Virus record (IMG/VR): IMGVR_UViG_3300031994_000010
Location: 1 to 64,000 of that record
From: a virus
Lineage: Duplodnaviria > Caudoviricetes
Strand: one strand, 5' to 3'
Length of the DNA stretch: 64,000 nt
Shown: positions 20,122-62,900 of the stretch, one piece after another
How the letters are laid out: every line of letters starts with the position of its first letter
Position numbering within the stretch: the first letter of the stretch is position 1
The notes under the pieces: generated by a model
The model's database searches: none
What the model was told of the DNA's origin: nothing
The model's input: the letters and a program-made list of their open reading frames with translations, nothing else
Position numbers and translations under genes: made by a program

Positions 20122-20130
20122 TTATAACGT

Positions 20131-31951: not shown

Positions 31952-31977
31952 GAAATTACATAAAGTTCTAAAAATCC

Positions 31978-32008: not shown

Positions 32009-32041
32009 AACTCAATAATTAACCTTTAAATATTTAAAGTT

Positions 32042-32377
32042 ATGAACATTAACATTAGAAATTATCAAAGCGAAATTCAAAAATTTCAAGAAGGTGGTGC
32101 TATGCCTGCTGAGGCTGCACCAGAAGCAGCTCCTATGGAAGCTGCTCCAGCAGAAGAAGCTCCACAAGGTGGTGGAGACCCAGTAATGGAACTTGCTCAA
32201 ATGGCAATGCAAGCACTCCAAGGTCAAGATTGTGAAGCAGCTATGGCTGTATGTGAAGGATTTGTCCAGTTAGTTCAAGAAATGGCTGGCGGAGGCGCAG
32301 CAGGTGCTCCAGGTGCAGCTCCAGAAGGCGAACCAGTCTATAGACGTGGTGGTAAGCTTATCGGATACATGAACTAA
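32042..32377 (+). CDS. Small acidic Ala/Pro/Glu-rich protein, 111 aa, TAG-free
   Basis: Intact in the standard code. FQEGG near the N-terminus and YRRGG near the C-terminus. Flanked by a promoter and a terminator. Confidence 0.8.
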   Translation: MNINIRNYQSEIQKFQEGGAMPAEAAPEAAPMEAAPAEEAPQGGGDPVMELAQMAMQALQGQDCEAAMAVCEGFVQLVQEMAGGGAAGAPGAAPEGEPVYRRGGKLIGYMN

Positions 32378-32387
32378 TTCAGATTAT

Positions 32388-32419
32388 AGGGAGCATAGAA
32401 ATTCTATGTTCCCTTTTTT
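32388..32419 (+). terminator. Rho-independent terminator
   Basis: AGGGAGCATAGA-aat-TCTATGTTCCCT followed by a T-run. Confidence 0.85.
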
Positions 32420-32439
32420 ATTTTAAATAATATTTAACT

Positions 32440-37431: not shown

Positions 37432-39344
37432 GAATTAAAATACGAAAATACTAGTAGGGTGGAGGTGTTATGGCCTCCATCTACTAGCCAGTCACTACAA
37501 CTTCTGGAGCTTCTGGAGTTAATACAGCTCAGTACGCTATAAATCTATTAAATTCTGGAACAACAGGAGGAGGAAGCTCCTCATCATCGTCTTCTTCTTC
37601 TGATAAGGGGAAAATTACTGAAAAAGATTTATATACTGGGTTATATAAAACTATAGCTGAACAAGGGTTGATTAGTGACTCACAATATATAATTAGTCAA
37701 TTATAGAATGATTTATTTAATGAAAGTTTAACAAATCCATTTGGAGATACTTCTGATTTAACTGGAAGATATATGAAAGCTTTATCTTATGTAAATATGG
37801 CAAAGTCTAATTAGAAGTTATATGACGAAGCATATAAATAGGCGGTGTCTAAGGACAGCCTGCACGAAACTGCCGTTACAACGGACGGTAAAGTTGTAGT
37901 AAAAGCTAGAGATGGACAAATTACTATGATTAGTCCAGAATAGTATAGAAAAAATCCAGGTAATTACACCCTAATGACTAATGGAAATCTATTAGCTGAA
38001 AGAATGAATAATCCCAAAATGGCTTTCTAGAATGGAGTATTTGGGGTTGTTCAAAATGGTACTTCTATAAAAGAAATTTCTCAAACTATAGATGCCTTTG
38101 TTAAAAACTTAGGTGAATAGGAAGGTTCCGATGAAAAATTAACTGATGATATTAGAATACAAGATGGTATTCATACTTTAAAATAGGCAGTAGCAAAACA
38201 AGGAGTTGAACCAGTTATATCAGCAATATAGAGTGGAAATTTATATAAAATAGGAATAACTTCAAAAAGCAACGTTGAAAATATACAACTTGCTATTGAA
38301 TCTATATATAATATTCTTCCAGAAAACCAAAAAACTTTATTAGAATTACGTGGAGGAAAAGCTGCTTTAGCTGGATTAATTTCTATTTAGACTAAAGAAT
38401 CCTTTAAATTCACTATAGACGAACAATCTAGTTCTGATAAAAAAGATGGAAAATCAGGAAAATCTGGAAGTGGTAAAGGAGAGGCTGAACTAAATTACGC
38501 TGAAATTCTTTATCATGGAGCTAATGAACCAGAACTAGTATAGTTTGGAATTAAAAATAGTGTAATTCAAGCCATGGGAAGACGTTCTCGTATTACAAAT
38601 TATCAAGGAGAGTCTTTAGGTAGTGATTTTTCTTACTCAGAACTATACAAGTCTTAGGTTGGTAGTGTGTTAAAATTTGATTAGGCAAGTTTTGGAGATG
38701 TACCAATTAATAAAGCTCTAAAAGACAGAATTATTATTGATAATGATGAAATTGTAGGGGTAGATTTACCTTATAAATAGCTTTAGGATGGACGAATTGT
38801 TCCAAACTTTGAACTTCTTACTAAAATAAGGGAACTTGACGATAAAATCCTTTAGCAAGGATTGTCTCCAAGTAATCCTTCAGATATATCCAAGATAAAT
38901 CAGATGTATAAGGATGCGGGTTTACCCATTAAATATGCTCTTAATGGTAGTGGATAGATTTAGTTAACAAAAAATTACAAAAGATTTGCAGCAGTTTAGG
39001 CTACTGCAGATGAAGAAGCTTTAATTGGAGGATACTCTGTATCTAACCCTACTTTAGAAGTAGTAGAGGATGAGAATGAATAGGAAGAATATATAAGGCG
39101 AGTACGTGAAATAACTAAAGATAAAGAGTTTAATCTAGATAAACGAGGATTATTTAGTTTTGGAGACAGGCATTTAGTTAGAGGTACTATTTTCATTCCA
39201 ATAGGAGGTAGTGCTATTGACGCTAGAATGGCTAGTAGTAGTGGTAAAGTCACTGGAGGAACTACTGATTATGATACTATTAGAGGTAGGGACTACGCTA
39301 GGCAAAATTATGTTGTACCAGAAGAAACTAATTTGACACCATAA
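37428..39344 (+). CDS. Putative cargo protein, ~638 aa
   Basis: Starts MRIKIRKYQQGGG (QQ = TAG TAG), followed by a Ser/Gly linker. ATGA and TAATG junctions. Confidence 0.65.
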
Positions 39345-42300
39345 TGGAAAAACAAAATGATTACTTTATAAATTAGCTGTATAATCCTACATTTATGGCA
39401 GGAGACTTTCAGAATGTAGGATTAAATACAACTAATACCACAATATAGGATAAAGAAGTTTATAAAAAATTAGATGTAGTCTAGAATAATGATATGTTCT
39501 AGACTAATGGTAGCTTTGATGAAAATAAATTTAATGCATTTTATGAAAAAGCTTTATTAGGTTATAATGATTTATCTGGAAAAGATCATGCTGAAAGATT
39601 AGCTACTACTTATTCAGCATTTAGAACTGATTTATTCGCTACCTCTTCACAGAATAGAAGTACAGGGCCAGAAACTTTAATTACTAAAATAGCAAATCCT
39701 GAAGGAAATAGTTTAGGATTCGTAAGTAGAAATATAAAAGGAGTTCAAAGGCTTTCTGTTAGAGAAAATGCAGAAGCTCATTTATTTTATGATGGTGCTA
39801 CTAATACTTGGAAGGAGTCCCCAAATAACACAAAATTAGACAACTTTATAAATCCAAAAGTATTAGCTTAGTATGATGAAGATGTAGATATAAATGGTAA
39901 AGTTAGAGGATAGGCAGGATTTGACCCAAATAATATACAATATCATAAAGGGGATAAAAAAATAAATCCAATTACTGGAGAATACTATTATGAATCTTTA
40001 AATGGTCGTTCTATTTATGGAAGAGATGTTTTATCCGGTTGGGACACATTGACTGTGGATGGTTCTACTTTTAACTAGTATGATTTTTTTGATTCAGATG
40101 ATTTAAATAAAAAAACTAGAGGCTCTTTACTTAAAGCAGCAGTCAAAGTTGCTCCTGCTTTAATTTCAAATATATCTCCTTGGTATATTGGAGCGAGGTT
40201 AGCATTATCTTCTGCAGACTTAGTAGCTAAAATAGGAAAAATGCTTCCTGGAGTAAGTAGTGATAATAAAGTATTATCATATTTAGAAGGATTAAATGCA
40301 GCTTGGACCACTTCTACCTCAGATGATGCTTAGTAGCACGCTTGGAAATTAGAAAATATATTTAATCTTGGTGCCGATGTGTTTACTTAGCTAGCAGAAC
40401 AACGTTGGATATTTCAAAGAGCGGGGGCTATTAAAAATGGTAAGTTAGCTTATGATAAAAAAGCCCAAGAAAAATATGTAAAAGAACTTGAAAAGAAATG
40501 GTTTGACAATTTCTCTGGAAAAATAGAAAGTAGAGAAGACTTGTTTGATCTTCCGGCAATGGCTAAATTCGAAGCACAAGCAGCTTTAGAAAGAAAACTT
40601 AAATCCACTGAAAAACTAAGTGAGCAATTATCTAAATTATATATGACAGGAATAACTGTAGCAGATTCATTTAGTGAGGCTAAAGAGTCTGGATTAAGTG
40701 ATGCAGAAGCTGCAGTATTTACTTTAGTTTATGGTTTAGGAGAATATGGTATTCTTAGTACTAATTTAGGAGAACATATTCTTCCAGAATTACGTGCTAA
40801 TAAAATTAGATGGCAAAATATTGCAAAAACATTAGCAGGATTTAAAGAAGAAGCTAAAGGGGATAGTAGAAAGTTTTATCAAAAGATTGTAGATTTTGCT
40901 AAATAGACAGTTGTTGGTGATTATAACGATTCTAAAATTGCTAGAGCATTATCTACTGGAGGAACTAAGAAAGCTTTTGCATTTTCTATGGCTTCTAACG
41001 CTTTGGGAGAAGGTTTAGAAGAAGTATCAGAAGAAGCTTGGTTAGATTTAGCAAAAGGACTATACAATGCGGCTGCTGATATGCATATGACCTAGACTGG
41101 AGCTACCTTCCAAAATAATGGCGGTCTAGAAGAAATGTTGAATAGATATGCCATGAACTTTGTAGGAGGTTTAGTAGGTGGAGGTATAGCAGTTGGACTA
41201 CCAGGTTTTTAGTAGGGAATTAAAAACATGTTAGGAACCAACATGGATACTAAATAGGCATATCAAGAATTAGTTTCTCTTATAAGAAATGGTGAAATGG
41301 AGGATTTCTTAAAGACAATAAAAAAACTAGAATTAAACGACTCTACAAAATCCGCAACATAGTATGAAATATCGGACAATAAGATAATGTATAAGCCAGG
41401 AACTGAAACTGATAATCAAAATAAAGCCACTCATGATATCTTAGAACACGCTGTTAGAATGATAAATGATTTACTAACAGTAAATGGGGCAAATATATCT
41501 GATGATTCAATATTAAAAAATCTAACCTAGGACGCTCAAAAACTATTATAGTTTCACAGAGTATTAGGAAATGATGCAGTAGGTTCTTCTGTTTTAGCTT
41601 CCTATGTATAGGATTATAATACATTAGCCACTTAGATAGCTGATATAGCCCTTAAACTTGATGCATTGGAAAATCCAGCAGTTGACTAGGAAGGTAAAAA
41701 ATAGGCTATTACTGCACAAAACTAGTAGGAAATTACTACTCTCAAAAATAAATTAAATAAATTATTAGAATAGAGAGACTTATATATTAATGGAGGAATG
41801 ACCAAATATGCTCTCCCAGCAGCTATATTTGAGATGTCAGACTTCATATCCAGTCCATACTTATCTACTAATTTTAAACAATATATAGAGAAAGTTGAAG
41901 GAAAACCTTTGGAAGAGTTATCACCTGAAAGAGTTTTAGAACTTAAAGAACAATGGAAATGGTATAAAGAAACTTAGCTTTCTGATGATATAAGAACAGC
42001 TCACGGTTATTTTTAGGAAATTCAAAAAAGATTCTCTAAAAATTTAGAAGAATTTAATCAATTATATTCTAAAACATAGAATGCTTTAGGTAATTTAAGC
42101 ACAATTTTCTAGAGAACTGAAGAAGGAATACTGAATACTCCTGGATAGTTAGCAGAAGATATCTAGGCTAATGCTTAGAGTTATGAAGTTGATGCTATTA
42201 ATAGAAGAGTTTAGCCAAACTCTAAAATTAATGGAACTATTAAAACAGTTCGCTCTTTAGTTACAGCTTTACAAGAACTTAATCCTGAAGATGAATCTTT

Positions 42301-45300
42301 ATAGAAGATTTAGGAAAAGTTAAACTTTTTAAATCTTCCTCCAACTGCTAAAGAATTAAATGCTGATTAGCAATTAATAGTATTAAAGTTAGCTAAGATA
42401 TTGACTCCAGACTTAAATGCTATACAAGATTCAGTATTTAATGCTTTACGAGCTATATAGAATACTGATCCAGCAACTGTTTCTTAGGAAACTATTCTAT
42501 CTACATTAAAACAAATTAATCCTGAAATTAAAGAGCTTAATCAGGAAAACTTAGATTTATTTAATTAGGTAAAAGCCGCATTAGGAACTACTCCTTTACC
42601 TGCTGAACTTAGTAGTTTAGAATTAGAATAGTAGATGCAGTTATTAGAAATAGCTAAACAACTTAATCCTGAATTAACAGCAGTATCTGATGATTAGTTA
42701 AATACACTAAAAGATAGATATTTTAAAGAAGCTTTAATTGAAGCATTTGTAAAAAAGGATCCAGAAACTGATGATGTTAGTCTTAGAGAAGAAATTAAAT
42801 AGATAATTTAGGATATTCCTTATATGAATTAGGACCTAAAAGACTATTTAAAAACTGATTTACTTACTCAGTTGGAAATATATGTAGAACAAGAAAGTGA
42901 TTTGTTTGATACGGATGCTACAAATGAGGATTTAATTAATTTTATTAGGGTTATTGGTATGGAAATTGATAAACTTCCAACAACTCCTATAGAACAATTA
43001 GCTGATTAGTTTATGTTAGCTATTGGAGAAAATAGGTATAAATTATCTTAGTTAATCAAAGCATTATAGACTCAAATGAGAATTTCAGTTGGAAGTGATG
43101 CTATTGGAGAGTTTGGATATTCTGATGAAGTAGCAGACCAAATTGATAATGCTCTACAAATTTTATCACTTTTAGAAGCTCATGTACTAGCTTCTAGGTC
43201 CGATGGTAAAAATATTGGTAATATATTTGGATATAATGTAGTAGTTAACAAATTAATTCCAGAAATGAATTTAGCTACCATAGACAAAAATACTGCTAAT
43301 GTAATTATGTAGGATATAGCCAAACTAAAATCTAAATTACTTTATTATTAGGGTATTTTTAAGGTTAATTCTGGATAGAAACTTTCAGAACAATCTAAAA
43401 TTAATATAAAATTAAAAACAGCATTTGTCAAAAGATTAAAAGCTATAATATCTATTTTGCCGGACGACTGGGAAAAACAAGATGAAAATGGTGTACTTCT
43501 TTTAAGTAACCTAAAATCTATTTTAGAAAAATGCTCTACAATTAATGACATATTAAATAGTTCGGAATCAAATAGATTTTAGTTAAATCCAGAAAAAACA
43601 AAAACATTCGAAAAAGAATATTTAGAAATAAGTGATGCTATTTATGATTTATTTAATTAGAAGGATAATTTAAAGAGGATACAAGATGGAGAACTAGATT
43701 CTTTAATGGATTAGTTGGTATTATTACCTTCTACAACAGGAGATTCAACTACTTTTGATGGTACTAACGTAGATCTAAACTTAGAAACTATTGATGACAG
43801 AAGTTTTTTATGGATGTTAATTGCAAATGCTTCTGTTAAAACTTCTGATTTTTATGCGGAATACATAAAGAGTATTAGTGATAAATATGCTCCTATTCCT
43901 GGACAAGAATTAGCTATTAAAATGGGTTATTCTTTCCTATTAAATCGTCCGATGTTTTAGGCATTTGGAAAAGCTTACAATAAAAAATTCTTGAAAGAAT
44001 TAGAAACTATAGATTCCGATTAGTTAACGATTAAATATGGAAAAGGGGCAAATAAAGACGCAAAGCTGGATAGTGATTATGCTCTTTAGATGCTAAACAC
44101 TTTCTTAGTAGAAGGAATACCAGGAGCAGGTAAGAGTACTGGATATTATTCTATTTTAATAGATATGCTAAAATAGAATCATAAAGAGTTCTTAAGAAAT
44201 GTGTGGGTAGTTCATACTGATGCTACTAAAGCTGCTAAATTTGCAGAAAATATAGGATTAGAAGCAGCAAATGTTACAGCTCTTGATAAAAATTAGTATT
44301 TAAAAAAAATTTGTCCAGACTATTAGTAGCCAACAGTAAAAAATGGAGTAATATCTTTATCTATAAATGAACTGCAAACTGATCCAGAAACCAATTTAAA
44401 ACATTATAAAAATGAAACTCTTTCATAGGATTCTAATATCCCAACATTAATTATAATGGATGAGTCTACTAGATTCTCTTAGTAGGATTTCTTATTATCT
44501 GAAAAATATTAGCAAGAACATGGTGTAGCATCTTTAGCTACTGGTGATTATGATTAGTTAGGAGCATTTGGAAGTACTAAAATTGATGACAAAACTACAT
44601 TGGTATTTAAAACTGCTTCTGATAATTTTGTCCATAGTCCTAAACTTGGTACATCGATGCGTACAGATAATAAAATAAAGGATACTAATATTCAAATTCT
44701 TAGGTCACAAAGGCTTTCTACAGTTAACGCTTTAACTAATAAGGATACTCCTCAACCAGTTTTATTAAATTATTATGAATCAGATGAAGGTTTATGGGGA
44801 GAGAAAATAGTCCCAACAGCATCTGAGTAGGATGTAATTAAATTACTCAATACCTTAAAGGATGGTGAACAATTATTATATATATACTTTAATGAGGATT
44901 CTGATACATATAAAATAATTGATAAGTTATCTAAAGAAGAAGAATATAAAAATAAAATAGTTAAGAAATCTAGTTCTGATTCTTAGGGAGATGAAGCTAA
45001 ATATGCTATTATTGAGACTCTACCTATTGAACAAAATAAATAGAGAGACGATTATGAGTTTGTATATAGTTCCTTCTATACGGGTGTTACAAGATCCAGT
45101 TAGGGAACTTTAATAGTTAATACTGGTGATACTAGTATATTCTAGACAACTAAAGTAAAACAATTAACTAAAAGCCCATTATCTAAGCAAGCTATTCAAT
45201 AGTATGCAAATACTAGAAAAGAAATATTATAGAGTTTATTAACTGGAAATGAAAAACCGACTACTATAATTGGAAAAAAACCTGATACACCTAATCCTCC

Positions 45301-48142
45301 ACCAAATCCAGATGTAGATGACTAGGATACTCCTACTACAGATACTGGTTCTAGTACTACTGAAGATGAAGCTGATACCTTAAATAATAACAAGGTTATT
45401 ACAGTAGAAAATGGTGATGATACTTAGTATAATATGTTACTACATTCTATGCCTATTAGTGAAACAGGATTTGAGTAGGATAGTTCTGGATTAGTAGCAT
45501 CAGAATCTTCTAAAGATAGGATAGATAGTTTAAATGGTCTTATAAAACTTGGAAAATATAGGGAACCAGGTTTAATTGATTTATCTTTAGCTAGTGATGG
45601 AAAGCATCTAAATGATGAACATAATGCTTTGAAAATTTTAACATAGTTGACTCAATTATGTTTATATGAGAAAGATCCAGACAAAATTAAAGCTGGATTT
45701 TCCAAAATCTTGAATCTAAGAAGTGATGTAGATTTCGGTATTAATTTTGGATATATGTCTTGGGGAGAACGTTCCGATGATTTAAACTCCAAAGACCCAA
45801 AATATAAAAGATTCTTTAGGGGATTAAGAGAAAAGTTATATGGAGTATTTACTGGAACTAAATATAAGGATAAAGATATAGCCGCTCAGAGACATGGAAT
45901 TGTTGCAAACCTTTATATTAGAGAAAAACTAGCAAATGGAAAAACTAATAGAAGAATTGTAACTACATTGCCTTTATCTATATTTACTTCTCCTCTTACA
46001 ATGTTAGACACTAAAGGATTTGAGCGTTTTAAACTCTTATTTAACACTATGACCGGAGATTTAGGTCATAGAATGTAGAGTTTTAAAGACTTATTATCTG
46101 ACGAAACTGAATTTAATAATAGAATATCTAGATAGCCCGGAATTACTTAGGAAGAAATAAAGGTAGCTAAGGCTAATAGAGTAAAATTATTAAAACATTT
46201 CATACTTTATACATCTTGGCAAGATTAGATAGCTCTTTTCCCAGATGATTTTGTATTTGCACAATAGTTTTAGCCTTTAGGACCAAATATTACTACTAAA
46301 GATAAAGGTAACGAATATGAATAGCCTAGTGAAATGTTTGTTTGGAAAGGTGAATATATGAGTCTTAAAGACGTCGATCAAAGTATTCATCATATTTCTA
46401 AACACGTTTATTATACTACTGAGGATGTAGTTATTAATGGTAGAACGATAATTAAAGCAGGTCATGGGTTTGTTCTTTGTTCAGATGTTGAAGAAGCTGG
46501 TAATGAACGAGAATTATTAGAAAAATTTGTTGAAGAAGAATTAAAAGATGAGCCTGATGGTAAAATATCTTTACTTTATACTAGTTCTCCAGGAGTAAGT
46601 ATCGATGAATATTTATATAATTTCGCTTAGAGATATCTAAAAGGACAAGTAAACAAGGATTTTGGTAACTATTTAACTGATATTAAATTAGCTTCTGCTA
46701 TAACAAAAGATGACTCTGAATTTTCTAAACTTATGGAAACGAGTCTTAAAGTAGACCTTCCAGATGGAAAAACTATTGATGATTTGGATCCAAAAGACGA
46801 AGTTCGTTTAAAAATAGAAAGATGGAGTACTTTTAAAGCCGTAATGCGTAAAGTTGAAGCAGACTTAGAAGGTAAACCTTTTGAAGAACAAAAGAAACTT
46901 TTAAGTAGTAAAATGTCTGATGAATATTTAAGTATTCTTGACCCAGCTTTGAGAGGAAGATATAAGGATCCTAAACTTACTCTTAAATCCTTCATACAAC
47001 ATCAAATACTTTCTTATGCTTTAAAACCAAGAGTTTTTAGTAAACTACAAGATATAGTTGGTGAAGGACGTTTAATTGTTACTGAGGAGCTAAAGCCTAG
47101 ATTAGAAGCAATTACAAAAGATACTGCTGATATATTTAAAAATGGCATCTATGTTAATTTAACTGGTTTAGGTAGCGATAATAGTATTAATGTCTCTAAA
47201 AATGTAGCTGTTACCTTTGTTCCTGTTAGACATAATGATAAATATGAAATTGAAATAAATAGAGTATGGAAGCCAATTAGAATAAATGGTAAAATAGATA
47301 CTACAATGCACTATGGAGATGTTTCTAGTTTAATGGATTATATATTAGATGGGATTAATAAATTCGATGGATTAAATAAAAAACGTTATTTCGGTGATTG
47401 GGTAGAATCTTCTAAAACAGGAGAAAATGAAAGTACTTAGTTATTTGAAAATTCAAAAAATAAGTTTGATAACAATTCTTAGGATATATTAAGGGATTTA
47501 TGTAAAAATTATACTAAAGATCTTAAAGACGTTCTAAGCTCTAATGATGTTCAGACTCTGTGTAGTTTCTTAGCTAAACATAACTTTTATGTTAGTATTA
47601 ATACTGATAAAAAGATACATCTTAGAAAAGAAAATTCTGGAAGTTTTATCTAGGAATTTGTAACTGGTAAAGACAATAAAGGCGGAGTATTAGTATTTAA
47701 GAATAATAATGTATATTTGAGTACTCCTTCAGCATTAGTTGAACTATCCAAAGAAGATGCCTAGAATTATATTGATTCTGTAAAAAATTAGCAAATCAAG
47801 GATGTTTTATAGGAAATAATTAACGCTAAAGAGCCTGGCAATGAAGGAGGTGGTTCTACTGATGGGACTTTTGATGTTAACTCTAATACATTAGGGGATC
47901 AAGAATAGGTAGATGCTTTTATTGCTTATCTTAAAAGTTTAATTTTAAGTAATGGAAAGTCTGTATATTAGACATTAATGGATGATTATAACTGGATTGA
48001 AGTAGATTTTACTTTTGAAAATATTAAAAATAACGTAAAAGATGGCCTTAGTATAAACTTGGATGAGATTGCGTCAAAAGATAATTCCCTCAATGAAGAA
48101 TTTGACGACTTAAAGGACTGGGCACATAATAAATTATGTTAA
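39344..48142 (+). CDS. Giant virion-type protein with SF1 helicase domain, ~2932 aa
   Basis: Track ORFs from 40541 to 46733 are all in one frame. N-terminal NALGEGLEEVSEE ejection-protein-like motif. Helicase motifs GIPGAGKST, LIIMDES, GDYDQL, SQGDE and YTGVTRS. Confidence 0.8.
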
Positions 48143-48154
48143 ATATAAAATAAT

Positions 48155-51100
48155 ATGCAATATTGTAATATATCTTATAATTTACTTTCAGGGGTTTTTA
48201 CTTAGTGTAAAACTCCTGAAGGTAATTTTAACTTAGAACAATTTAAAGAGAAGATAAAAGACTTAAATAGTAATATAGATGATACTAACGGAATTTCTGA
48301 AGACAAATTTATACAAGTATATAAAGAAGTATTAGCTAGTAGAAATTTTAGGAATTTTATTCTTCCTCTTTTGACTCGAGATTAGAAAGAAACTTTAAAC
48401 AACTTAGAAAATATTAAAGCTTGGGCACATCCTAAAACTGAAGTAAGTGATCCAGTAAGTAATTTGGAATAGCCATCACTAGCTTCTGAAACTTCTTTAA
48501 CTAAAGTTTCTACTAAATGGTTAAACGCTGCTTGGGGATATAATACTCAAGCATTGGATGCTTTTTTAAGACAAACAAGGAGTGATTTCAACGACATTAT
48601 TTCTAAAAAAGGAGTAGATATAACAAATTAGACATCTTTAAATCTAGCTATACAAAACTTTTATAGAGAAAAATTATATTCTATAGCCAATTATTTATCC
48701 TGGGCAAGTAAAGATTTAAAAAAACCTGAATTAGAGGAAGATGCAGCTAGACTAAGATAGTTAACAGAAGGTTTATGGGGTTCCACATAGTAGACTAATT
48801 GGGTAAAAATAAAGGGAATATTAGATACACATTTTTCTACAATAAATGAAAATTTATTTAGGTATTATACTGGTAAGTATGTATCATCTAGAGAAATTCG
48901 ATTATAGAAGTAGATGAGGGCCTATGGTGACTATTTAATGATTTAGCCTACTAATTTTGACTCTTTGATTCGTACTTAGTTAAAAGGAATTAGAATAAAT
49001 CATAGTCCTGGCAAACTTACTTAGTTTGTAAACAAATACATATACGAAAAAACTAGTAGTATAAACACTTGGCAAGAAGAAGATTCTTATTCTATAGCCA
49101 GAGGGGTATCAGATTTATGCTAGGTTTCTGTTATGTCCTGGAAAATGTGGAGAAAACAAGGTAATACTTGGGTAGAGTCATCATTTGAGCATCCTGCAAA
49201 TATTGCATAGGTCTTTACTACTATGAGTAAAATTTATAAATTAGGAAGCTCTCCAAAGGCCAAAAATATTATAATAGACTCTTCATATTTAGGATATTTT
49301 AGGGATTGTGGATTTGACTTTGGTGAAAGTCTTGAAACTCAGAAAATAGATGGAACTGAATTTGTTATTCCAAGGTTAACCAATCTATTTAATAAATATT
49401 TTCAAGGAAAATCTTTAGCTGAAATTGTTTCTTCTATATAGTAGGATCCACTTAGGTTAACTCCAATGATTATGGCTTTATTAGCTCATCCAAAGTTAGG
49501 ATTTGAAACAACTTTTAAAAAGGATTATAAGGCCCCAAATGAATATGGATTTGATTCTAATGACCGAGCAATGGTTTATACCATATGGAAAAACATGTTT
49601 GATCCTAAAGAAAACTCCGTAAATAATCCTGTATTATACACATTTTTAATGTAGTCATTCCTTACACATGATATGAAATCTATGTATGGAATTAAATTTA
49701 AGGATGGAGAACCTAAAAAAGCTTATTATTCTTAGGGAAAAACTGAAAAGAGTCTTAATAATTTATAGTTAAGAATAAACGGATTATATCCTCCAACTTT
49801 AGAAAAGAAGTTTAAATATGCCGAAATAACTACAGACTTAGAACATAATTTAGTTACTATTAAAAGTGGGGATTTTTCTATCCAAATTAAAAATGGAAAA
49901 GTCTCAGTATTTCATAATCGTCAAGAAATAAAAAATAATGATAATGCTTCTTAGGTAAACTTACAAGAAGCATTAGATACATTAACTCCATTTTTCCAAG
50001 AAGCTTTGGCCTTAGACTTTAGTACTAATGTTGAACTTCCATTAATGGAAGCATATCTTGGAATATTAAATGGTTCTAAATATACTGCATTATCAAACTT
50101 AGCTAATATTACAGGTCAATTGATATATGCTTATGAGGTATCTAAACAATATATAGATGAAGATAATTCTTCTGATTTCCTGTCTAAAGTAAGAGAACAC
50201 TATGATAAAAAAGACAAAATAAATCTAGTTAATGGAATAACTGACTACTAGATAGATGTTTTTAAAAATATATTTGCATAGGTATATTTATTATCATTAG
50301 CTAATGATGCTCATAATAAAGTAGTAGGAGAAGCTATGGTTAAAGATGGTTTTGGTAATCCAATTAGTTCAGAAGTATTAACATCTTTAACTACTAAATA
50401 TCCACAATTTGTAGGAGAAAAATGTAGTGGTGATTCTATTATAAAGGATTTTTCTCTTCATAAAATCTTAAAAGAAATTTCTTTCTATAGAGATTATGTA
50501 GATGCTTCAGGTAATATAAAAGCTGCAACAGGAATGTCTGTAGAAGAATTGTTTTTATCTAACTTTCTTTATGGATTTTATTCTCCGAGTAATACATAGG
50601 AAGTAATGCTTGGAGTATTCTCTGATAAACCTAATTTAGGAAGAATTGAATTATACAAGGATCAAACTGTCGAAGTTAATGGTCAAAGTAAAAACTTAAG
50701 TTCCCTTACTATAGCAGAAATAAAAACACTGGCAACTAAAGAACTTGGAGAGTTTTATCTCAAAATGTACAATAATATGTAGAAATAGTTGAACATATTA
50801 AATAAATATTTGCCTGCAAATATACAATTTAATATGGATACAGACTATTCTGAAGTTAATGCTGCTGGATATACAAAATCTTAGCTGTTAGACTACATCC
50901 ATTAGGCTATTGTGGCTGCATAGAATAATGGAGAAGATATTCAAATCAATGATTTACTGTATTTTTATTGGGACAAGGATTAGGTACATGTACGTCCTAC
51001 TATAATTGCAGAATTATATAGAGCTGGATATATTTAGAACACAGAATTTTGGAATAGTAAATTAATAGGTTTAGAAACTGATTAGGACTTTTGGTTCAGA

Positions 51101-54100
51101 AAAGAAACAGAATTTGTAACAAGTTTGTTATAGGATTTACCTAGAGGAATTTCTTTAGTAGATTCAAATGGTGAACCTATGAATTCTGAATCTATGAGGT
51201 TATTATTAGAGAATAATCCAAGAATTGCATATAAAGATGGTAAACCCGATTTTAAAACTGGTTGGGCAACTAATAGAGCACTTATCTTAGGAAAATTTTT
51301 ATATGGGGATGAAGTACATATATTAACAACTAAGGAAGATTTAAAATCTTGGCCTGTATATAGAAATACTTTAGAATATATTAGAGATTTAGGATTAGAT
51401 ACTTCTGAATTTGATATTAATGATAGATTTAATTTAAAAAAATTCCTAAGCTTTGTAGCTGCTAATTATTAGTAGGCTGCAGAACATCATAAATATACAA
51501 GAGCTAAATCTTTAGCAACGAAGTTTTTAACTGAGTATTATAAAAACCATATTAAAACTTTAACTAAAAATCAAAAACAAGAAGTTGCTGATAATTATAG
51601 AAAATTTATCTTAGAAGGAATAGAATTAGGATATTACGATAGATAGTTAGAAGCAGAGGGATATACAAAAGACGATTTTGAGGGATTTGTTTAGGATAAA
51701 ATAACTAAGAGAATGGAAGCCTATGAAGAAGAGCCTGCTAAGATGATTAGTGCATATGCACATGCTGTTGCAGAGTCAACTCCGATGGAATCTATTCAAG
51801 ATATTAAAAAAGCTATTCAAAACAAACGTCCTTAGAATAAAAATAGTTTAGAAAATACCCTATTGACGAATCTTAAAGAAGAACTAGACAAAAAGGATAG
51901 TATTTTAACAGACTTAAAGTTTGAAGTAAATCCTGAGTTAGCTAAATATAATACTTTAGGTTATATGGCATCTGAAGAAGGATTAAATAGCCTTGTTGGA
52001 TCTCATGTTAATCATGAAGTTAAAGGTCCTTATAATCCTAATGTTGTAGAACTAAATTCAGCTGAAGTGTCTGCCTAGTCTAAACGTAATGTATCGTTAT
52101 CTTCTGCAAAAAACTAGTATTTAAGAACCGACCCACGAGGAGTTGGAAAAACCTGTAACTTAGCTATTATAGAAGATACTTATGGACATATATCAACTAT
52201 TAATGGTATTGAAGATAAAAAAGGTACAAAACCTCAGGATGGTGCAACATATGGAAACTACATATATAGAAAACAAGAATTATTTTCATTAGGCTCGCAA
52301 AGAGCTGGAATAGATAACTCAAAGCCTATTGGAAATGATCTTAATCCAGACACAGGAACTGGTACTATAGTAAAAACTGCCGTATTTGTTCTTACTAATC
52401 AACGAATCAGAACTTCTAAAAGGAATATAGATTTACATAGAAAAATGAACCATATTCCTTGGAAACATACTAAAGGATTTAACGGAGATTATCTACATGA
52501 TTATAACGGTAATGAGATTAACTATAATAAAGTCTTTATTTATAAACCTTCTACTGGAAAATACTATCACCGAACTAATTTTAGAATATTGACCGATGGA
52601 AAAACTTAGTTTGATGAATATGAAGTACCAAGCAACTTTTCAGAATTAATGAAAGCTGGTGCTAGTATGAATAACATTTTAACTAACAAGATAGAAAGAA
52701 CTACATCTAGACCTGTAAACACCAATTATGAGTTATGGGATTTATTTGGTGGTGCTTATTCTGCACATATTAATCCAGATACTCTTGAATTGGAATACGC
52801 AAATGATAATACTTCATTAGAAAATGTATATATAGCTAGTTATAATGTTGGAACAGTTCTTGGAAGTGGTTAGGTAATTACAGATGAAGATGTATATTTA
52901 CCAATTAGAGATTCTAAAATAGATTGGGTGGTTACCTAGGGTGCTATTAAACATGGTGCTACTAATGTTAACTATGGTGGTAGTAGAGCTATAGAAGATC
53001 CAAATTATAAATTAACTACTCAAAAAATGAGTACCGCTGATGTAGGTATGTAGCTTAATCCAGAACATATTGCAGATAAATCTACTTTAACTTTGATGAC
53101 TCAGGTTATAAATGCTCTTGGTTTAAGAGGTTATAGTAATATAGAAGCACATAAATGTTATAAAGCTCTGGAATCTTTAACTAATATATGTTTAAAAGAA
53201 GTTTTTGAAGGAATTGGTATTGATGTTGAAACTGGAAATTCTTAGGAATTTAAAGATGCTGTAGCTACAATAGTATTAAAATCTTTAGCTAATACTAGTC
53301 CAACTGGCGGGGATTTATTATCTGCAATAGTAGCATAGCTGGATATGAGCGGAAATGTGGAGCATGCTTATGATGTTATACGTTCTAAGTTACCAGTTAG
53401 TGATCCAGCTATAATGCATAAATTCATAAGCAATATTAATGCTACTATGACTAAAGCTGGAATTAGAATTCCTATGCAAGGTATTATGGATGTACTTGTT
53501 CCTTCAGATGGAATTTACAAAATACATGGAGGGAAAATTAGAAATATAGCTAATACTTCTAAATATCCTGGATAGGATTCCTTAATAACTTTAAACAAGG
53601 ATGAATTATCAGAAAAAGAATTTGAGTTATAGCAATTAAAAGTCCTTCAAGAGGAAGCAGATACACATCCTTTATAGTTACATGAAATAACTATAGGAGC
53701 TTCTTATTATATATAGATAACTAGTCCAGATGGAGAAGTGACTAAATCTTCTATATCAACTAAAATAGATGATAAATTTAGTTACTATAGGTTACGCGAT
53801 AAATTAAAAGACTATGTAGATGCTGGATTTAAATGTAATTTAATAGAAGATGTAATAAAAGGTAGAGAACTTTCGTCTTATGATGCACAATGGCGAGATA
53901 CTAAAGGGTTTAATTATAAACTTTGGGACTTAGAATCTACTTATTACTTAACTAATTTATTAAATGGTTAGGCATCTCAATATTATAATTAGGTATTACA
54001 AAATCCAAATATTTTATCAGAAGTTTTTCATGTAAACCCAACAGCTATAAATTTAGATTCTGAAAAAGAGTTTGTTAACAGTTTACAAAAAGCTTTAAGA

Positions 54101-57100
54101 GCTAATTTATAGAAGGATTTAAATAGTATAGGTAGTGGTAATAGTACTGGTGTAAGAGTTCTTAGAAATATTAATGACTCTTCTTCTGAAAAAGAATTCA
54201 TTACTATTTAGGTAGCAAAAAATAGTACAAAGGTAAAACCTTATGAATTAATTGCTTCTAAAACATATGCTACCACTTTTGGTTTACGAGTTGGTGATGA
54301 CATTTCAGAAATAGTAAATGATTCTAATTTCTTCTTAAAGAGATTACTAGAAAATAAGAAAGAAAATGTAGCTCCTACAGATTATGATTTAGCCTTACGG
54401 TCAGTTTCGGGCAAAAACTATTATATTAGATACAAATGTTAGTATTCTAATACTAATGGCTTAAGTAACTCTCCACTTAGACTAGACACAGAATGGGATG
54501 GAAATACATTGTATAGATTAGATTCAGATTCTGGAAAACGACTATATAAGATTCCATATCATTATGATGATAATCATAGAGTAGTTATGGATATTTAGGT
54601 ATATACTGATGTAAATGGTCATGAAATTATATACACTAATAGATTATCTGAGATACTGGATTTATTTTCTTATTCTTATATAGATTTTGGTTCTCCTACT
54701 GTAAATGATAAAAATGAATAGAAATTTTTAGAAATTTTAAAAGTTTTAGAAACAGTTGATAAGAATTCTGTTAAAAACTTAGTAGAAGCAATTAAAACTA
54801 GTTCTTAGGAATCTAATCTTCCAGCAGTTAATATAATAAAAGAACTTACTACTGCTAAAGAAAATGAATTAGCTAAGTTAAATGCAGCTATTTAGAATAA
54901 AGAAAAAATATCGTTCTTAGAATATTCTCCAGTTACTAGACAATTAATAGCTTCGGGAAATGAATTACATACTTCCTTCTTAGAATCTTGTCATTATCTA
55001 GTATCCAGAACCCCAGCATAGTCTCACCAATCCTTTATGCCTATGGTATTAATAGGTTTTGATGAATCTGGAGTAAACTCTGCTTATGTAAGTAGATATT
55101 AGTTATATTTATAGGGTTCTGACTTTGACGTAGATAAGGCTTCTTTATTAGGATATGTTTTTAATTCTGGTAAATTTGTTACTTGGAGTCCATTTATGAG
55201 CCTAGCTTATTAGGAAATATTTGATGCTTCTAAAGATTTACCTTTCCCTACAGGTAATAAAGTATAGGTTGGAGAAATAACTAGTGATATATATGATTCT
55301 ATAGATAAACCTATTAACATTAATGTATGGGAAGATGATTATGTCGAATTTGAAATCTCTGGACAAATAATTTCTATATAGAATTTGGGTGATAATAAAT
55401 ATTTAATAAATTCGCCTAACTATAATAAGTTGAATAAACTTGATAAATTCTTAATTAAAAAGGCTATATGGGATAAATTACCAGAAGGAGCAAATATTTA
55501 GACAACTATATCTGATTTCTAGATAGGATTTACTAAAAATTCTGAAACTGAGTTAGGTTTTACTTATACTAAGTAGGGAACTTATGATAATTTAAGTTCA
55601 TTTAATGAGTTTATAGATGCATATGCTGACCTATATACTAAAGAAGGCAGATTAAAGAAATCTCCAAATAATATTAGGCGATTAGCTCAACTATTTGACA
55701 TTCTTAATAATTTTGGAGTTATTCCACCTGCTGAAGATAATTCTTTATTAAGTTTTATTTAGAGAGATTTTGATGCACATAATACTTATTTTGAAAAGCA
55801 TTCTGATGCAAAAGATGCTGCAATAAACTATGTTAGTTCTGCTGCATTTAAAGTATCAGCTGACCCTGTAAATAATATTTAGGCATCTACTTCTGTGGAC
55901 TTCTAGACTGGAATAGTTAAAACTCTAGCAAATCAATCTAAGTTAGCAGAATAGTCTAGACATTTTGATACTGGAAATGAAATGTCTAAATTTAGGCTTA
56001 ATAAATTAACATTATCTGGTAAATCAGATACAGGTATTGAAGCTTCTGCACTTAAAGTATATGAAGCTGAATATTAGTATACTTGTCATGTTTTAAATTT
56101 TGGAACAACTTAGGAATAGCATGAGTTACTTTCCGATGCTAGACTGTTAGGAAAGTCTATGCCTTTAGTAGCAAATGCTTTTGCAAAGAATATAACAAAT
56201 ATTAAGGATAAAGATATTTATGATATACTTTAGGAAGTAGATTAGTCAGAAGATGCTGTTATTTGGTTAAGTGCATTTTTAAGTTTATCTACTGATAATG
56301 CAAAAGACCCCACTTTAACTAAGATTAATGCTGACCCAGAAATGATTGGCTTATATAATGCTGGATTTATTCTTGGATTACCTATTGAAACTCTAATTCG
56401 TACTATTAATTCTGATACTGGGCGTATTTTGGCTGAAGTCTAGAAAGGTAATATCTTAACTAACTTAGATGGCCAAAGTATGGTTACTGGTGCTCTTAAT
56501 TATCTACGAAGAGGACCTAACCTTTCCTATATATCTAGCATTACGTCTATTACTGATACTATTGATACTGCATTACAAAACGCAGGATTAAAGTCTGATA
56601 ATGAAAAAATAAATGGGCATAACTTAATATCTTATTTGTTAGGAGGACAACGAGATTTACCTGCTATTTATACAGCCAAAAATGTTATAAGTGCTTTAAG
56701 ACAAACAATCTACGGAGATTCTGAAGTTGATGTAATTAATATTAATTAGGCAATTAGAAATAGACTAAATAGTTAGAAACGTTCATTAAATAGACTGGAC
56801 AGATAGATAATAGGATTAGAGAAGGTTATTGAGGAGTTAAAAGCCAATAAGAAATCTACAAAACGTCTTGAAAATAAAATAACTAAGTTATCTGAGGATA
56901 AAGCTAAGTTATAGAATAGTATAGATTAGTTAGTAGATATAACTGAAAATTTAAGACTAACAGGTGATGTTGGAACTGGCTCTGGGGATGAATATGAATA
57001 TGCTAAAAAGTTATAGAAAGATATTGCAAAAGCAGAGCAGGCACATTCTAGAATAACTGGAACTACTGTTAAAGGAATTATTGATAACATGCATTCCTTT

Positions 57101-58882
57101 AATAGATTATTATCAGATTTAGAAATATATTTAAATTATTTAGAAACTATTGCCAATGAGCCTGGGATTGTTGGAGAAAATGGAAGAGAGTATAACCTTT
57201 TGGATGTTATAACATAGTTAAACTATAAAGCTCAAGAAATGTCTCTATTAAGACCTTTACTTGGATTAAACTAGCAACTTCCAAATTCTTAGGAAGACTT
57301 CTTAGCTTTTGTTAATAATTTTGGTGAAATCATTAATAGTAGAAAAAAATTACTTGGAGATTTTAGTGCTACTGAATTAGATAATTTTGAGTCTTTAAAT
57401 GAAAGTTTGGGTATTTCAGGATTAACTGTAGACTTACATTAGTTTATATGGAACCCAGAATATTAGAAAGCAGCAATTGCAGCATATGGAAGTATAAAAT
57501 ATCAAGTAAACGTCTTAGATTGTATTACTAAAGTTCCTCATTATTTTGGATATTTAAGAACAGCTGAAGCTGCTTATAGAATTAATAAAGCTTTAAGTAT
57601 CCAGTTTAGAGATCAAGATATTATTCTACAAAAAATAATAAGAGGAGATCTTAAGGTTTATAAAAAAGCCGATGTAGCTAAGAGATTAAAATTAGCTTCT
57701 GCTTATTTAGCTAGAAGATTAAACAACGGATTTTTACAAAGATAGAATTTAACAATATCTATAGGAGAAAAGAACATAACTTTGGGTACTCCTGAAGGTA
57801 ATGATGCTTTTATACAATGGATGGAAAATGAAGTAATCCCTTAGTTAAAAGATACTTTTAGAAATAATGAATTCTTAAAAACAATAACTCGGGCTGCTTA
57901 TCATAAAGCAGATAGTAGAAATACTATATATCCATATACAACTTTAGTAGATAGTATGTCTCAAAGTGAATCCGAAAAGAGTTAGTATTACGCTGTTTAG
58001 TAGGGATTAACTGAACTCACTACTTTTAAAAATTCAAAATTTGGAAACATACCATATGTAGATTTATTCTTCTATTATGATTTAATTTGTTATAATAGAC
58101 AACCTGGAAGGTCCAGTTTAACTCCTCTATTTAATAGTTTAGTTGCATCTAGAAGAAGTTCTACTGTAAACAAATATATAGAATACGTTTCTACTTTAGA
58201 CTAGAGTAAACTAAGCTTGTTAGGAGAATTAGATGAGTCTTTAATAGATGAAATTGAAAGATACATAGCTCCAAATGTTTCTATATATGAACTTAATAAA
58301 TCTAAAGAAAAATATTAGTTTGTAAAAGACCCAGCTACTAAAAAGAATTATTTAGTTAGAACATTGGAAAAGTAGAGAAAATCTTCTGGTGTTCCTGATG
58401 AAGCATTAGATTCATTGTATGATGATTTAGAAGCTGATTAGTATTTTAGTTTAGATGATTTATCCGAATTTTCAGTAGAATATTCCGAATATACTAGAAT
58501 GCTTTCTCTTAGGGAAAAAATTAATAATGAATTAAGAGAACAATTTGCTTTAATAGATACTGCCTTAAGTAGATTTAATCCATATTTGATAACTGATAAT
58601 TCTATCTTAGGATTTGGAGAAATGGGCTTAGATATCTAGGTAAATTCTAATAGTGTTAGTATTCAAGGTACAACTGTTACTTTAGATGAAAATGGAAAAT
58701 TAACTAATACTTCAGAATTGTTTGAAAAACTCCAAACTTTAGCTAAACTAAACGGTCATCAAATTAATAGTATAAATGATATAATAGTTTCAAAAGTAGA
58801 TGTAACTAATAAGACCAAAGTTATAGATGTAGAAGAGACAACTAATAATATAAATAATTGTATGCAAAAATGTGAGATATGA
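48155..58882 (+). CDS. Virion RNA polymerase (crAss-type two-barrel), ~3575 aa
   Basis: SRTPAQSHQSFM followed by catalytic QGSDFDVDK (DFDVD at 55121-55135), and later LSTDNAKDP. All + strand track fragments from 49223 to 56480 share the frame. Confidence 0.85.
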
Positions 58883-59940
58883 TAGCTTGTGATATAAATA
58901 AACGTTCATTCAAATACCAGACATTGAAAAAAATGTCTGGTATTTCTGAATTTAATCTAGATAATACTATTACTTTATTTTAGAATAAATTTGGAAGAGA
59001 CCCAGAACTTGATGAATTACCAAGAGTAAATTCCGAACCTTATCTACGTGAAAAGCTTCCTATTAAGAACTATTCTTAGATGGAAGGAGTAAAAAATGAT
59101 GCTGTATTAGAATATACAAGTAGTGATACTATAGAATAGGCCAATATTACCTTAAATAACCAGTATAAAGATTTAGAAATAGAACTAACTCCATATTAGA
59201 CTTTTAGTGTAATAAATATTAAACATAGACCAACTACTACTTAGGATATAGTTGATCCAATCGACGTAGAAACTGATTTTTCTATAGAAAAAAGTAAAAT
59301 AGTTTTAACGAATCAGTTAAATAAATTACAAAAGTTATATGGTATAGATATAGTAGCTACTGATAGTGAAAAATTAAAAGAATTAGGTATACCTAATACT
59401 GATTTGGTTAAAGGAGTAATTCATAATGGAACTATTTATATTAATACTGATAATTCTACCATAGACACTCCAATTCATGAGTTAATGCATATATTTTTTG
59501 GAAGTATTAGATATACTAATCCTAACTTATTTTTTAGTCTAGTAAATTCCGTAGAACAATTACCAAGATATAATGAATTTGCATTATAGTTTCAGGGAAG
59601 AACTAGAGGGGATGTTAATGAAGAAATATTTGTTTAGGAATTTGCTAAATTTTTAACTGGCGCTCCAAGTTTATTTGATAAAGTTTCTGGGATTGACAAA
59701 ATTCTTTATGAAGTACTAAGAAATATTGATTCTTTAATTTCTGGAAATTATAGTGTTAAATCTATATAGAGTGGAATCTTTGATAAATCTGTACTTGAAT
59801 TATCTAAAATATTAGAATCACCAATAGTAAATAATTGTCAATATGGGTCTTTAACTCTAGATACTTTACATAGAGTATTAGCTAATTATAAAGAAGATTT
59901 AATTTCAAAGGGTAAACTAAAAGAAGAATGTTATGGCTAA
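58879..59940 (+). CDS. Zincin-like metalloprotease protein, 353 aa
   Basis: KGVIHNGTIYIN...DTPIHELMH (59476-59490)...EEIFV. Confidence 0.78.
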
Positions 59941-62900
59941 TTGTAGATATGTATTAGGAAGTAAGGTGTTTAATTCAGAAATAGAATTAGATGATTACTT
60001 ATCTGCTATAAAAGATATACATAAAAAATACGGGGATGAAGTTTTTAGTCAAAGATGGAAACCTATTCAATTAGGCTATAGAGACAAACTTTATCATCAA
60101 AAAGATATATTAGAAGAAGAGGTAAAAGCAGGAAGAATTGTTATTGAAACTTCTAATTTAGAAGATAATGATTTAGATGGTATAGTAGGAAAGTTAGATC
60201 GTCGTGGAGTAAGTTAGTTAATGAAAGAACTAGTTTCTACTACTAATGCTTAGTTATTTCCCGAATTTAGAGCAGATGATTATTGGAGTAGAGTTAAACG
60301 TAGAATGGCCGCAGGTGATTTTAGTGACTTTAAAAATGACCAGAAAGATGATTTATGGGTTATTTTTGATGAAAAAGATGCTGAAGGCAATTATATAACT
60401 CATCCTATAACTTCTGAAGAAGAATTTGAACACGTCAGAGAGAAATTTACTAAAATGTGGGAACAACAAAGTATGATTGGTACTGTGGTTCATGATATTT
60501 TTAGTATTTATTATAGTGAATTTTCTTCTGGAGTTCAGAATAAAAGTTTAACAAAAAGTTAGAAACTAGAAAAAATAAAAGAAATTATTTCTAAATCAAA
60601 TAATTATAAAGATTTAGTATCTAAATATAATAACAATATATTATTAAATGATGCTTTTTTAGAAAATGTTTTAAAGAATTGTGATAAATTTAACGAACAT
60701 CTTAGAACTTCTAGGGATTTTGGGCCGAACGTAATGTGTATTCCAGAAGCAACTATAAAAGGTATTGCAGTTACGAATAATGATACTAAGACTGTAGTTG
60801 GTAGAATGGACTTATTGGTAATTGGAGACAAAGGACAAATTGATATTATTGATTTTAAATGTTCTCCAAGAGATTATTCAAAGTATGATTCAGCAAAAAC
60901 TCTTACTTTTGAATATTAGTTAGCTATATATAGAAGAATATTACAATAGCTTGGAATTAATTCTGGAGAAGGTATAAGATTATGGGTTTCTCCAATAAAA
61001 TTCTCTGGCTTTACTCTAGATGACTAGGATAGAGTGCAAGTTACTGGAGTTGAGTTACATGACCCAGTTATAAGGGAACTTCCTAACTCTAGGTCTACTA
61101 TTGATGATACTAGATACTAGACTGTAGAAAATAATCTTGATAAAGCTTTTAAATCTAACTATGTAGAAGATATATCAGCTGATGAGATATTATCAAAAGT
61201 TCAGACTTGGATTAAAAAAGTATTTCCACAATACGGAGAGTTTAAAGAAATTACTGACGAAGGAGTTCAAAAATATGCTAAGGATAAAGTAAAATAGGAT
61301 AAAACTACAGGAAAATGGGCATTTTACAGATATAAGAATCATTCTCCTGAGTTTGTATCAGATACAGAAGAACAAGTTATTGCACAAATTAAATAGGAAT
61401 GGATTTCTAATAGAGCCAGAAATATAGAAAAAACTAAGGAAATTAAACGAGATTTAAAAAGAGCTACTGAACAAAACTTAGGAAAGAGTGCAGAATTTAA
61501 CATAATATATAAGCAAAAAAACTAGAAAACTGCTAAAATACCAGATTGGGCTTAGCAATAGTTACAAAAATATGCCACTAATTTATATTAGATAGTTAAT
61601 ACCCCAGAAGCTTTTGATGCATTAGGAATAATATTAGTTAGAAATACTTTAACTCAACAAATAGATGTAATTAAATTATCTCCAACACATGATTTAGATG
61701 CTAAATTTAATTTTGGCAATGGTAGGAATACCTTATTAGGAAAGTGGTTATCTGATTAGGCAGTCAGAAGTAGACCTAATAATAGAATAATGGATGCTAC
61801 TAGAGGTAATGTGGAGCTTATGGAGACTATGTATGCACTAAATTGTATGCCAAGTCTTTTTGCAAATAATAATGCTCACCTTGGAGAAATTCAAGTATTA
61901 TCTTCCTATAATGAAGGCGGGGGTGCTTATAATGGCATTTTGGTTAATAACTTCAAAGAATTAATTAAGTTTTCTAATAGTAAAGAATCTCCAGAAGTAG
62001 ACCATTTTAGTGATGATACTATTAAAGTTGCCAATTTTCTTTAGCTCGCTACAGATAATTTAAAAAATATAATAACTAATTTTTCTACAGAGGGTAGATG
62101 GGATTTTGCACAAGAGTCTTATGACAACATAGTTAAAGCGGCTGGAAATAGAACTGAAACTATGGCAGAGTTAATGAAACTTAAGGATAAATTAGAAAAA
62201 TTTGCTGGAAATATCCTAGCAAATAATGTGCAAACTACTTTATATGATGAATATGCTTCCCCTGAAGTTAAATTATATGCTTAGGTAATGTTAGCTATAG
62301 GAGAATGTGGAGGATTAAATTATCAATAGCAATATAAAGACCATGCTAAATATTATGAAGGAAATATTATAAGAGCATTCTTATGGGATGGATTTAATGG
62401 AAATTTAGTAGATAATCCAGGAACTTTACGAAGTGAGACTCTAAACCAAGCCTCACACTTGATAGACATAGCTTATTAGAATATTAGAGATTAGTTATCT
62501 AATTATAGAGCAGAATTAGAAAAACCCCTTGATAAAGTTAAAAGTCTTCATTCTACTAACAGTCAAGAAGAATTATATAGAATATTTTATGATAAAAATG
62601 TAAAGGATGATTTAGTATTTAAAAATCCATTTACAGATACTACTCTAGATGATTCTCAAAGAGAATTGTTAAAAAAGGTTCTTTTAGATATTAATAAACG
62701 TAGAGACTCTTCCATAAACACAATGGAAGATTTAGAAGCAAAGATACTTACAGATTCTACCGTTTTATTAGTACCTTTAATTAAAAAGAGTGGTAAATCT
62801 GTTAGTAAATCTATTTCTGGATTTTTCTCTAATCTAAGAGAAACTTTAACTAATTTTAATCCAAAAAATTGGAAAGATTCTATTAAGGAATCTGTTGCAC

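Follow-up and report, generated by a model that had tools for sequence, protein, structure and literature searches.

Among the viruses of the human gut, crAss-like phages are the most abundant. In cultured crAss-like phages, relatives of the RNA polymerase studied here travel inside the particle and are injected. The motif DFDxD is characteristic of the crAss-like virion RNA polymerase (vRNAP) (bioRxiv 10.1101/2020.03.07.982082). The polymerase gene lies in the middle of a run of giant proteins, gp67-gp66-gp65 in phi14:2 (GenBank gp078-gp077-gp076) and gp47-gp50-gp49 in crAss001; three phi14:2 block proteins are proven virion components, and the literature treats the three proteins of the block as one unit, fused in some phages. 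The crAss001 proteins gp47, gp49 and gp50 are capsid cargo and must partly unfold to pass constrictions of <50 Å, and another cargo protein of this phage is thought to exit N-end first (PMC10172136). The question addressed here is how a protein cargo of 0.7 to 1 MDa, including the polymerase that starts infection, is loaded and delivered through a narrow tail. We analysed a stretch of 64,000 nucleotides (positions 1 to 64,000 of IMG/VR virus record IMGVR_UViG_3300031994_000010; hereafter the window), in which four consecutive late genes encode a similar giant-protein run with the DFDxD polymerase, and found that cysteines (Cys) are placed at the ends by which neighbouring proteins face each other.

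This cysteine rule has a polarity, being absent from the outer ends of the run, and is lost when the proteins are fused or when a partner is missing. The proteins and their landmarks are as follows (negative residue positions are counted from the C-end; TAG=Q is the reading of TAG as glutamine).

39344-48142, + strand: giant 1, 2932 amino acids (aa), TAG=Q, with a P-loop AAA_30 helicase-like domain; head of the putative chain
44114-44137, + strand: Walker A motif of giant 1, GIPGAGKS at residue 1591
48137-48139, + strand: TGT codon of giant 1 Cys2932, the C-terminal residue, facing the polymerase N-end
48155-58882, + strand: giant 2, putative virion RNA polymerase, 3575 aa
48164-48166, + strand: giant 2 Cys4, in the start MQYC
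55121-55135, + strand: DFDVD metal-binding motif of giant 2, in GSDFDVDK at residue 2323
58859-58861 and 58871-58873, + strand: giant 2 Cys3569 and Cys3573, at -7 and -3 in the end ...NCMQKCEI
58879-59940, + strand: zincin-like metalloprotease, 353 aa, start MIAC, end ...KEECYG
58888-58890 and 59929-59931, + strand: zincin Cys4 and Cys351, both invariant in 13 aligned orthologues
59476-59490, + strand: zincin HELMH, residues 200-204, HExxH motif
59933-64777, + strand, passing the window end at 64000: giant 4, 1614 aa; tail of the putative chain
59942-59944, + strand: giant 4 Cys4, in the start MANC
near 60800-60859, + strand: PD-(D/E)XK nuclease motif of giant 4, GIIDLLIID...DYKTS.K block

Giant 1 matched PF13604 (AAA_30) marginally, with 27.4 bits against a cut-off of 27 over residues 1587-1789. 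The GSDFDVDK of giant 2 is identical to GSDFDVDK at residue 1483 of crAss001 gp50. The zincin gave no Pfam match and a weak match to the phrog_87 metalloprotease (expect value (E) 1.5e-4); its H200, E201 and H204 and a NEEIF block (acidic ligand) are invariant or nearly so in the 13 orthologues. The nuclease block of giant 4 is conserved in 14 aligned N-terminal regions, and PF12705 is recorded on 22 of 25 giant-4 homologues. Judged by these domains and motifs, the four proteins are a putative RNA-polymerase-associated cargo block, composed of a P-loop giant, a DFDxD polymerase, a zincin and a PD-(D/E)XK nuclease giant.

Giant 1 starts with MEKQND and ends with ...HNKLC, the Cys being its last residue, and giant 4 ends with ...DNGKEE. 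An earlier inspection of the DNA (hereafter the sequence-only reading) had listed the termini NKLC, MQYC...QKCEI, MIAC...KEECYG and MANC. These residues are exact, with the correction that the genes are readable only with TAG=Q, and the start codons were upheld, each being the first ATG, GTG or TTG after the preceding in-frame stop. As had been noted, the head protein carries no N-terminal Cys; the chain tail likewise carries no C-terminal Cys. The proteins had also been called Cys-poor, which is correct relative to the other late proteins (34 Cys in 8474 aa over the four proteins, 0.40%, vs 1.0%), but 27 of these Cys are not at facing ends. From those frequencies we calculate a probability of about 3e-8 for a Cys within 7 residues of each of the six facing ends. 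Overlaps occur at two of the three junctions: the zincin start lies in the polymerase stop (ATGA), and the other overlap is 8 bases long. The four late proteins encoded directly upstream (29142-39344; 744, 192, 1663 and 638 aa; 3237 residues) contain zero Cys.

Across 27 genomes, 60 of 61 junctions had Cys on both facing ends, and the N-terminal Cys was never found on the first protein, nor the C-terminal Cys on the last. The clade of the window was defined by 13 IMG/VR loci found with the zincin, 32-55% identical and all TAG=Q. In all 13 loci a Cys was present at the polymerase C-end, at zincin residue 3-4 and at giant 4 residue 3-4, and in 12 of them also in the last 1-3 residues of the zincin. 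Eleven full runs in the clade had every one of the three junctions intact. All three junctions were kept in five relatives read over 40 kb, in four more contigs and in MT835470, an intermediate lineage with the standard code which obeys the same rule. The first protein lacked an N-terminal Cys in the nine runs that include its start, and the last protein of the clade runs always lacked Cys in its final 8 residues; among giant-4 homologues the N-terminal Cys was found in 25/25 and a C-terminal Cys in 0/25. The terminal Cys are thus kept in orthologues, from 94% identity to relatives without detectable sequence similarity. The sequence-only reading had placed each C-terminal Cys within the last 3 residues, which is true of the window and too narrow for the relatives of giant 1: the 17 orthologous first proteins examined all have a Cys within the last 13 residues.

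The largest sample was obtained for the polymerase, with 105 full-length representatives, each from a separate 50%-identity cluster, collected by an exhaustive search with the catalytic region. Cys was found at residues 3-7 in 104 and in the last 7 residues in 102 of them, while the polymerase background of 0.415% Cys gives an expectation of about 2% at an end. The C-end of most relatives has a single Cys. The profiles around both ends show no invariant residue besides the Cys. At the N-end it lies in M-x-(K)-C-x-(I/F/L), and at the C-end in N-(N/P)-C, preceded by an amphipathic helix. A search of the relatives with the N-terminal 500 aa of the polymerase gave no matches. The Cys codons at the junctions are both TGT and TGC, and the spacing between genes runs from overlaps to 30-base gaps, which indicates selection at the protein level. 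The pairing of Cys at facing ends is well supported by these sequence comparisons.

The rule is common to the window block and the blocks of phi14:2 and crAss001. The phi14:2 block has four Cys in 5,398 residues and all of them are terminal: one in gp078 as the last residue, two in the vRNAP gp077 (2180 aa) at residues 3 and 2179 (-2), and one in gp076 at residue 3. The Cys layout of DAC15 is the same. In crAss001, the Cys positions are -3 in gp47 (2341 aa; a single Cys), 5 and -9 in gp50, and 5 in gp49 (1349 aa; a single Cys). The gene of gp47 is on the opposite strand from those of gp50 and gp49, which excludes gene overlap, translational coupling and an RNA signal at the junction as the cause; with both Cys codons also in use, the explanation by gene overlap or RNA signal was rejected. 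The cultured blocks consist of three proteins and carry the zincin domain inside one partner, whereas the window has four proteins, including the zincin as a separate 353-aa link with Cys at both ends, and its late genes are TAG=Q recoded.

Fused forms were also compared. p-crAssphage gp44 and crAss002 gp33 each align to both crAss001 gp50 and gp49 (E 6e-35 to 1e-9), and contain the same domains in the same order as the separate block proteins. In the fused forms the link is a peptide bond and the fusion zone has no Cys over >800 residues, whereas crAss001, where the two proteins are separate, has Cys there at -9 and 5, and the separate proteins of the window have Cys on each side of the joints. 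In P0274 (2884 aa) the zincin is embedded at 1031-1256 and the single Cys is residue 4, with the upstream protein ending ...KCKGL; in P0271 (1397 aa, zincin at the C-end) Cys are found only at residue 3 and at the last residue, and the neighbours bear facing Cys. Set against these fused forms, the stand-alone 353-aa zincin with Cys at both ends indicates that the Cys track protein ends and not domains. Loss of the Cys on fusion, which the sequence-only reading had raised as a possibility, was thus found in p-crAssphage gp44, crAss002 gp33 and P0274. A profile comparison of the window zincin and giant 4 with phi14:2 gp076 aligned the HExxH segment alone (E 0.09 and 0.67), so the fusion test rests on the gp44/gp33 and P0274 cases; a homologue search with crAss001 gp49 returned only close relatives. 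As a side observation, the annotated start of crAss002 gp33 (L028 15996-16100) appears wrong, the probable start being 32 codons later, at MSC. The Cys rule can help annotators to place the true starts and ends of these giant genes.

Exceptional polymerases were inspected individually, and two of them were explained by errors in gene calling. In P0189 a GTG start, reading MSKC, had been missed, and its zincin start is also a GTG, reading MSNC (L029 5826 and 16204). In P0123 one TAG lies in frame within a single gene, which truly ends ...NECGK. A C-terminal Cys is truly missing from just two polymerases, P0249 and P0137, and these two are also the only ones not followed by a partner gene; the upstream neighbour of P0249 is a 333-aa protein with its sole Cys at -5, facing MGQFKC. 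Both are full-length crAss-type polymerase homologues outside a phage gene context, with guanine-cytosine (GC) content below that of the flanks. P0249 (L032 6001-16611, L033) lies amid bacterial genes (fumarase, exonuclease VII, ParE, serine dehydratase) and keeps an intact GSDFDGD; P0137 (L030, L031) lies in a low-GC stretch by a bacterial LplA-type gene on 12-13 kb contigs and has no D[FY]DxD. These two may be domesticated or remnant genes.

Polymerase genes split inside the catalytic motif (...LQGSDY / DFDVDK...) by intron-like inserts in several relatives provide a control, and no Cys was found at these false junctions. Such splits occur at L036 48-3952, at L040 7378-18235 and in the pieces P0138, P0163, P0219-P0221 and others; the L036 split adjoins a LAGLIDADG endonuclease gene, as expected of a self-splicing intron or intein, the motif being the site of highest conservation. 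The ejected vRNAP gp50 (3500 aa) of N4 and its companions gp51 and gp52 (L041; 4,294 residues together) contain zero Cys. Ejected giants seem to avoid Cys, and the crAss-like ones seem to keep them only at facing ends.

On this sequence evidence, the data require a direct relation of each protein's C-end to the N-end of the next one. The sequence-only reading had proposed C-to-N disulfides or metal bridges in gene order; the pairing of facing ends on which it built stands, through conservation, polarity and loss on fusion, while from that pairing we infer the bond, its chemistry, its timing and its role in packaging or ejection. We consider it fairly probable that facing Cys are bonded between neighbours, most likely as disulfides, to give one linear cargo thread in the particle. 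A disulfide is the simplest bond for two lone thiols, and crAss001 virions have resolved inter-protein disulfides in the tail hub, between the ring proteins R1-R2 and in the gp57 dimer (PMC10172136). A bond would run from the C-end Cys of each protein to the Cys found at residue 3-5 of its successor. Four separately made proteins would in this way be strung head to tail into one thread of about 8,470 residues that runs N-to-C throughout, the Cys link standing in for the peptide bond of relatives with fused proteins. One chain direction is kept only by C-to-N links, as it would be by a peptide bond; such links fit threading and the ease with which fused and split forms replace each other. During packaging, a linear thread would hold each partner to a single copy, and it would let the partners exit one by one through the narrow tail, after which thiol reductases of the host cytoplasm would part the proteins. 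More tentatively, we may suppose that the block is a reversible thiol-linked non-peptide 'polyprotein' (~970 kDa) which is packaged in one piece, passes out of the capsid N-to-C through the tail and is cut into working enzymes by host reductases, and that a similar rule in the fibre module (8618/9444) makes it part of a general assembly code; we would not regard this wider picture as the expected outcome.

Several points weigh against such a tether. The proteins are made in a reducing cytoplasm, and neither thioredoxin nor glutaredoxin was found in the genome. Given the 27 non-facing Cys of the window proteins, exclusive end-to-end linking is a weaker case here than for phi14:2. In the first protein the Cys is spread over positions -1 to -13, often followed by a short hydrophobic tail, and in the locus L013 the zincin C-end Cys is kept with about 100 further residues after it. 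The proteins gp47, gp49 and gp50 are not resolved in the crAss001 reconstruction (PMC10172136). Three putative cargo proteins, the smaller p-crAssphage gp47 and gp48 (L025) and crAss002 gp30 (L028) encoded upstream of the block, end ...KQSCR, ...YRCGGHRR and ...FRCGGKKKIA; each has a lone Cys close to its C-end that no N-terminal Cys of the next protein faces, which indicates that a terminal Cys can have other partners. Between the clade of the window and the cultured crassviruses, sequence similarity does not extend beyond the catalytic motif: giants 1, 2 and 4 gave nothing significant against crAss001 gp47, gp50 and gp49 (BLASTP, PDB phmmer and local profile), and giant 2 had no significant match to the two-barrel (double-psi beta-barrel) vRNAP gp66 of phi14:2 or to gp50 even with a profile of 40 clade members, the motif segment aligning alone. 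Motif, architecture and terminase kinship are accordingly the grounds on which the blocks are taken as equivalent.

Other explanations of the terminal Cys were weighed on the same data. A metal ion, e.g. zinc or iron, could bridge the facing Cys, maybe with two junctions together giving four thiolates; this would account equally for the pairing, polarity and fusion data and would work in the reducing cytoplasm, where disulfides are disfavoured. The two Cys at the polymerase C-end of the window (C-x3-C) would suit such a site, but most relatives have a single Cys there, and the profiles contain one conserved Cys per end and no further conserved ligand (Cys, His, Asp or Glu), and we regard a metal bridge as unlikely. 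The Cys could also bind something other than the neighbour, such as the portal, the inside of the capsid, other cargo or a further molecule of the same protein, as the lone C-terminal Cys of p-crAssphage gp47 and gp48 and crAss002 gp30 and the disulfide-stapled tail parts of crAss001 might suggest. However, such a partner would leave unexplained the Cys-free outer ends of the first and last proteins, the joint loss of both Cys on fusion, and the loss of the polymerase C-terminal Cys where no partner gene follows, and the four late proteins just upstream in the window (3237 aa) are Cys-free; this reading is quite unlikely.

A Cys at or near a new N-end together with one near the C-end is also what thioester-based ligation needs, and the Cys might then be catalytic handles for ligation (through a thioester to a true peptide bond) or for trimming by the zincin. 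Asn or Pro is enriched right before the C-terminal Cys, and a protease always accompanies the block. But no intein-like or ligase domain was seen, the offset of the Cys from the ends ranges from 1 to 13, and mass spectrometry of crAss001 and phi14:2 virions lists separate gene products, which leaves room for a joined fraction; we give this explanation very little credit. That the pattern comes from chance, or is a by-product of gene overlap, start-codon context or miscalled starts, is barely credible. Two of the three junctions of the window do overlap, and TGT is the usual Cys codon of this AT-rich genome, but the rule holds across opposite strands in crAss001, the spacing runs from overlaps to 30-base gaps with TGC also used, and the polymerase counts (104/105 and 102/105) are far from the expected ~2%.

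A second late set, of fibre-like proteins (900-12548), also has Cys-bearing ends. Starts of these proteins read MANC (900), MNTC (3179) and MSNC (7896), and the protein at 7896-8510 ends ...CKCNG. The protein at 8618-9406 ends ...SCGCNS and lies directly before the one at 9444-11384, which starts MIKKGCGCN; in the relative G002 the facing ends read ...DCGCNKN for the upstream protein and MSC for the start of the 9444 homologue (L042). The facing-Cys rule may extend to this tail-fibre module.

The source genome is 174,440 bp. With the standard table 11, the region of the window flagged by the sequence-only reading had no long open reading frames (ORFs); table 11 and table 4 (TGA=W) were both rejected, as neither yields long ORFs in the region, whereas with TAG=Q the whole 64-kb window becomes one late-gene array on the + strand. 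The terminase TerL (786 aa) matched phrog_6681 (E 7e-68), and its tblastn matches were only crAss-like phages, at 25-28% identity (E ~1e-30 to 1e-38); it is also 42-44% identical to two unannotated human-gut records. The portal matched the PHROG portal family phrog_6547 (E 1e-52). A major capsid protein was not recognised, the candidate head genes at 18164-21354 having no PHROG or Pfam match. Because of the TerL matches, the PHROG portal match and the TAG=Q array, the genome is, on sequence grounds, a distant, TAG-recoded crAss-like phage.

The genes on the - strand of this genome read well under the standard code. A cluster of 14 tRNAs was found on the - strand (genome 116347-124783, outside the window), including tRNA-Gln(TTG) and tRNA-Cys(GCA); among the tRNAs predicted by ARAGORN none is a suppressor with the anticodon CTA, even though TAG=Q is required by the late genes of the + strand. 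Within the recoded late region, two paralogous NUMOD1 homing-endonuclease-like ORFs (14828-15901 and 16628-17545) contain only 0 and 2 TAG codons, unlike the neighbouring genes.

Literature searches gave no description of terminal Cys in these proteins. The word cysteine is absent from the crAss001 structure paper, whose disulfide passages concern tail and capsid parts only (PMC10172136), the preprint on the phi14:2 polymerase mentions neither cysteine nor disulfide, and the phi14:2 polymerase paper has nothing on the termini. The sequences point to a previously undescribed end-to-end tether of this kind, probably a disulfide. If true, a conserved tether between neighbouring cargo proteins would be a simple answer for their stoichiometry, order and direction, and would explain why the block has been freely fused and split in evolution.

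The disulfides of crAss001 are covalent Cys-Cys staples between different virion proteins, as the proposed links would be, in the same phage order. The crAss001 staples hold a static tail and capsid scaffold and were seen in density, whereas the links proposed here would join a mobile cargo end to end and are predicted from sequence. N4 (Schitoviridae) likewise carries a giant RNA polymerase in its capsid, gp50, which is ejected with gp51 and gp52 through a short tail; the N4 and crAss-like polymerases are of unrelated type, and the N4 proteins are Cys-free, so that a thiol link is impossible there, unlike in the crAss-like block. In AB toxins two chains stay joined by an interchain disulfide while they pass a narrow channel, and the bond is reduced in the cytosol; sortase-built pili consist of separately encoded proteins that are linked covalently in a set order. 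Their proteins and machinery are unrelated to those of the window, and neither of them is a head-to-tail megadalton cargo chain of a phage, as the tethered crAss-like block would be.

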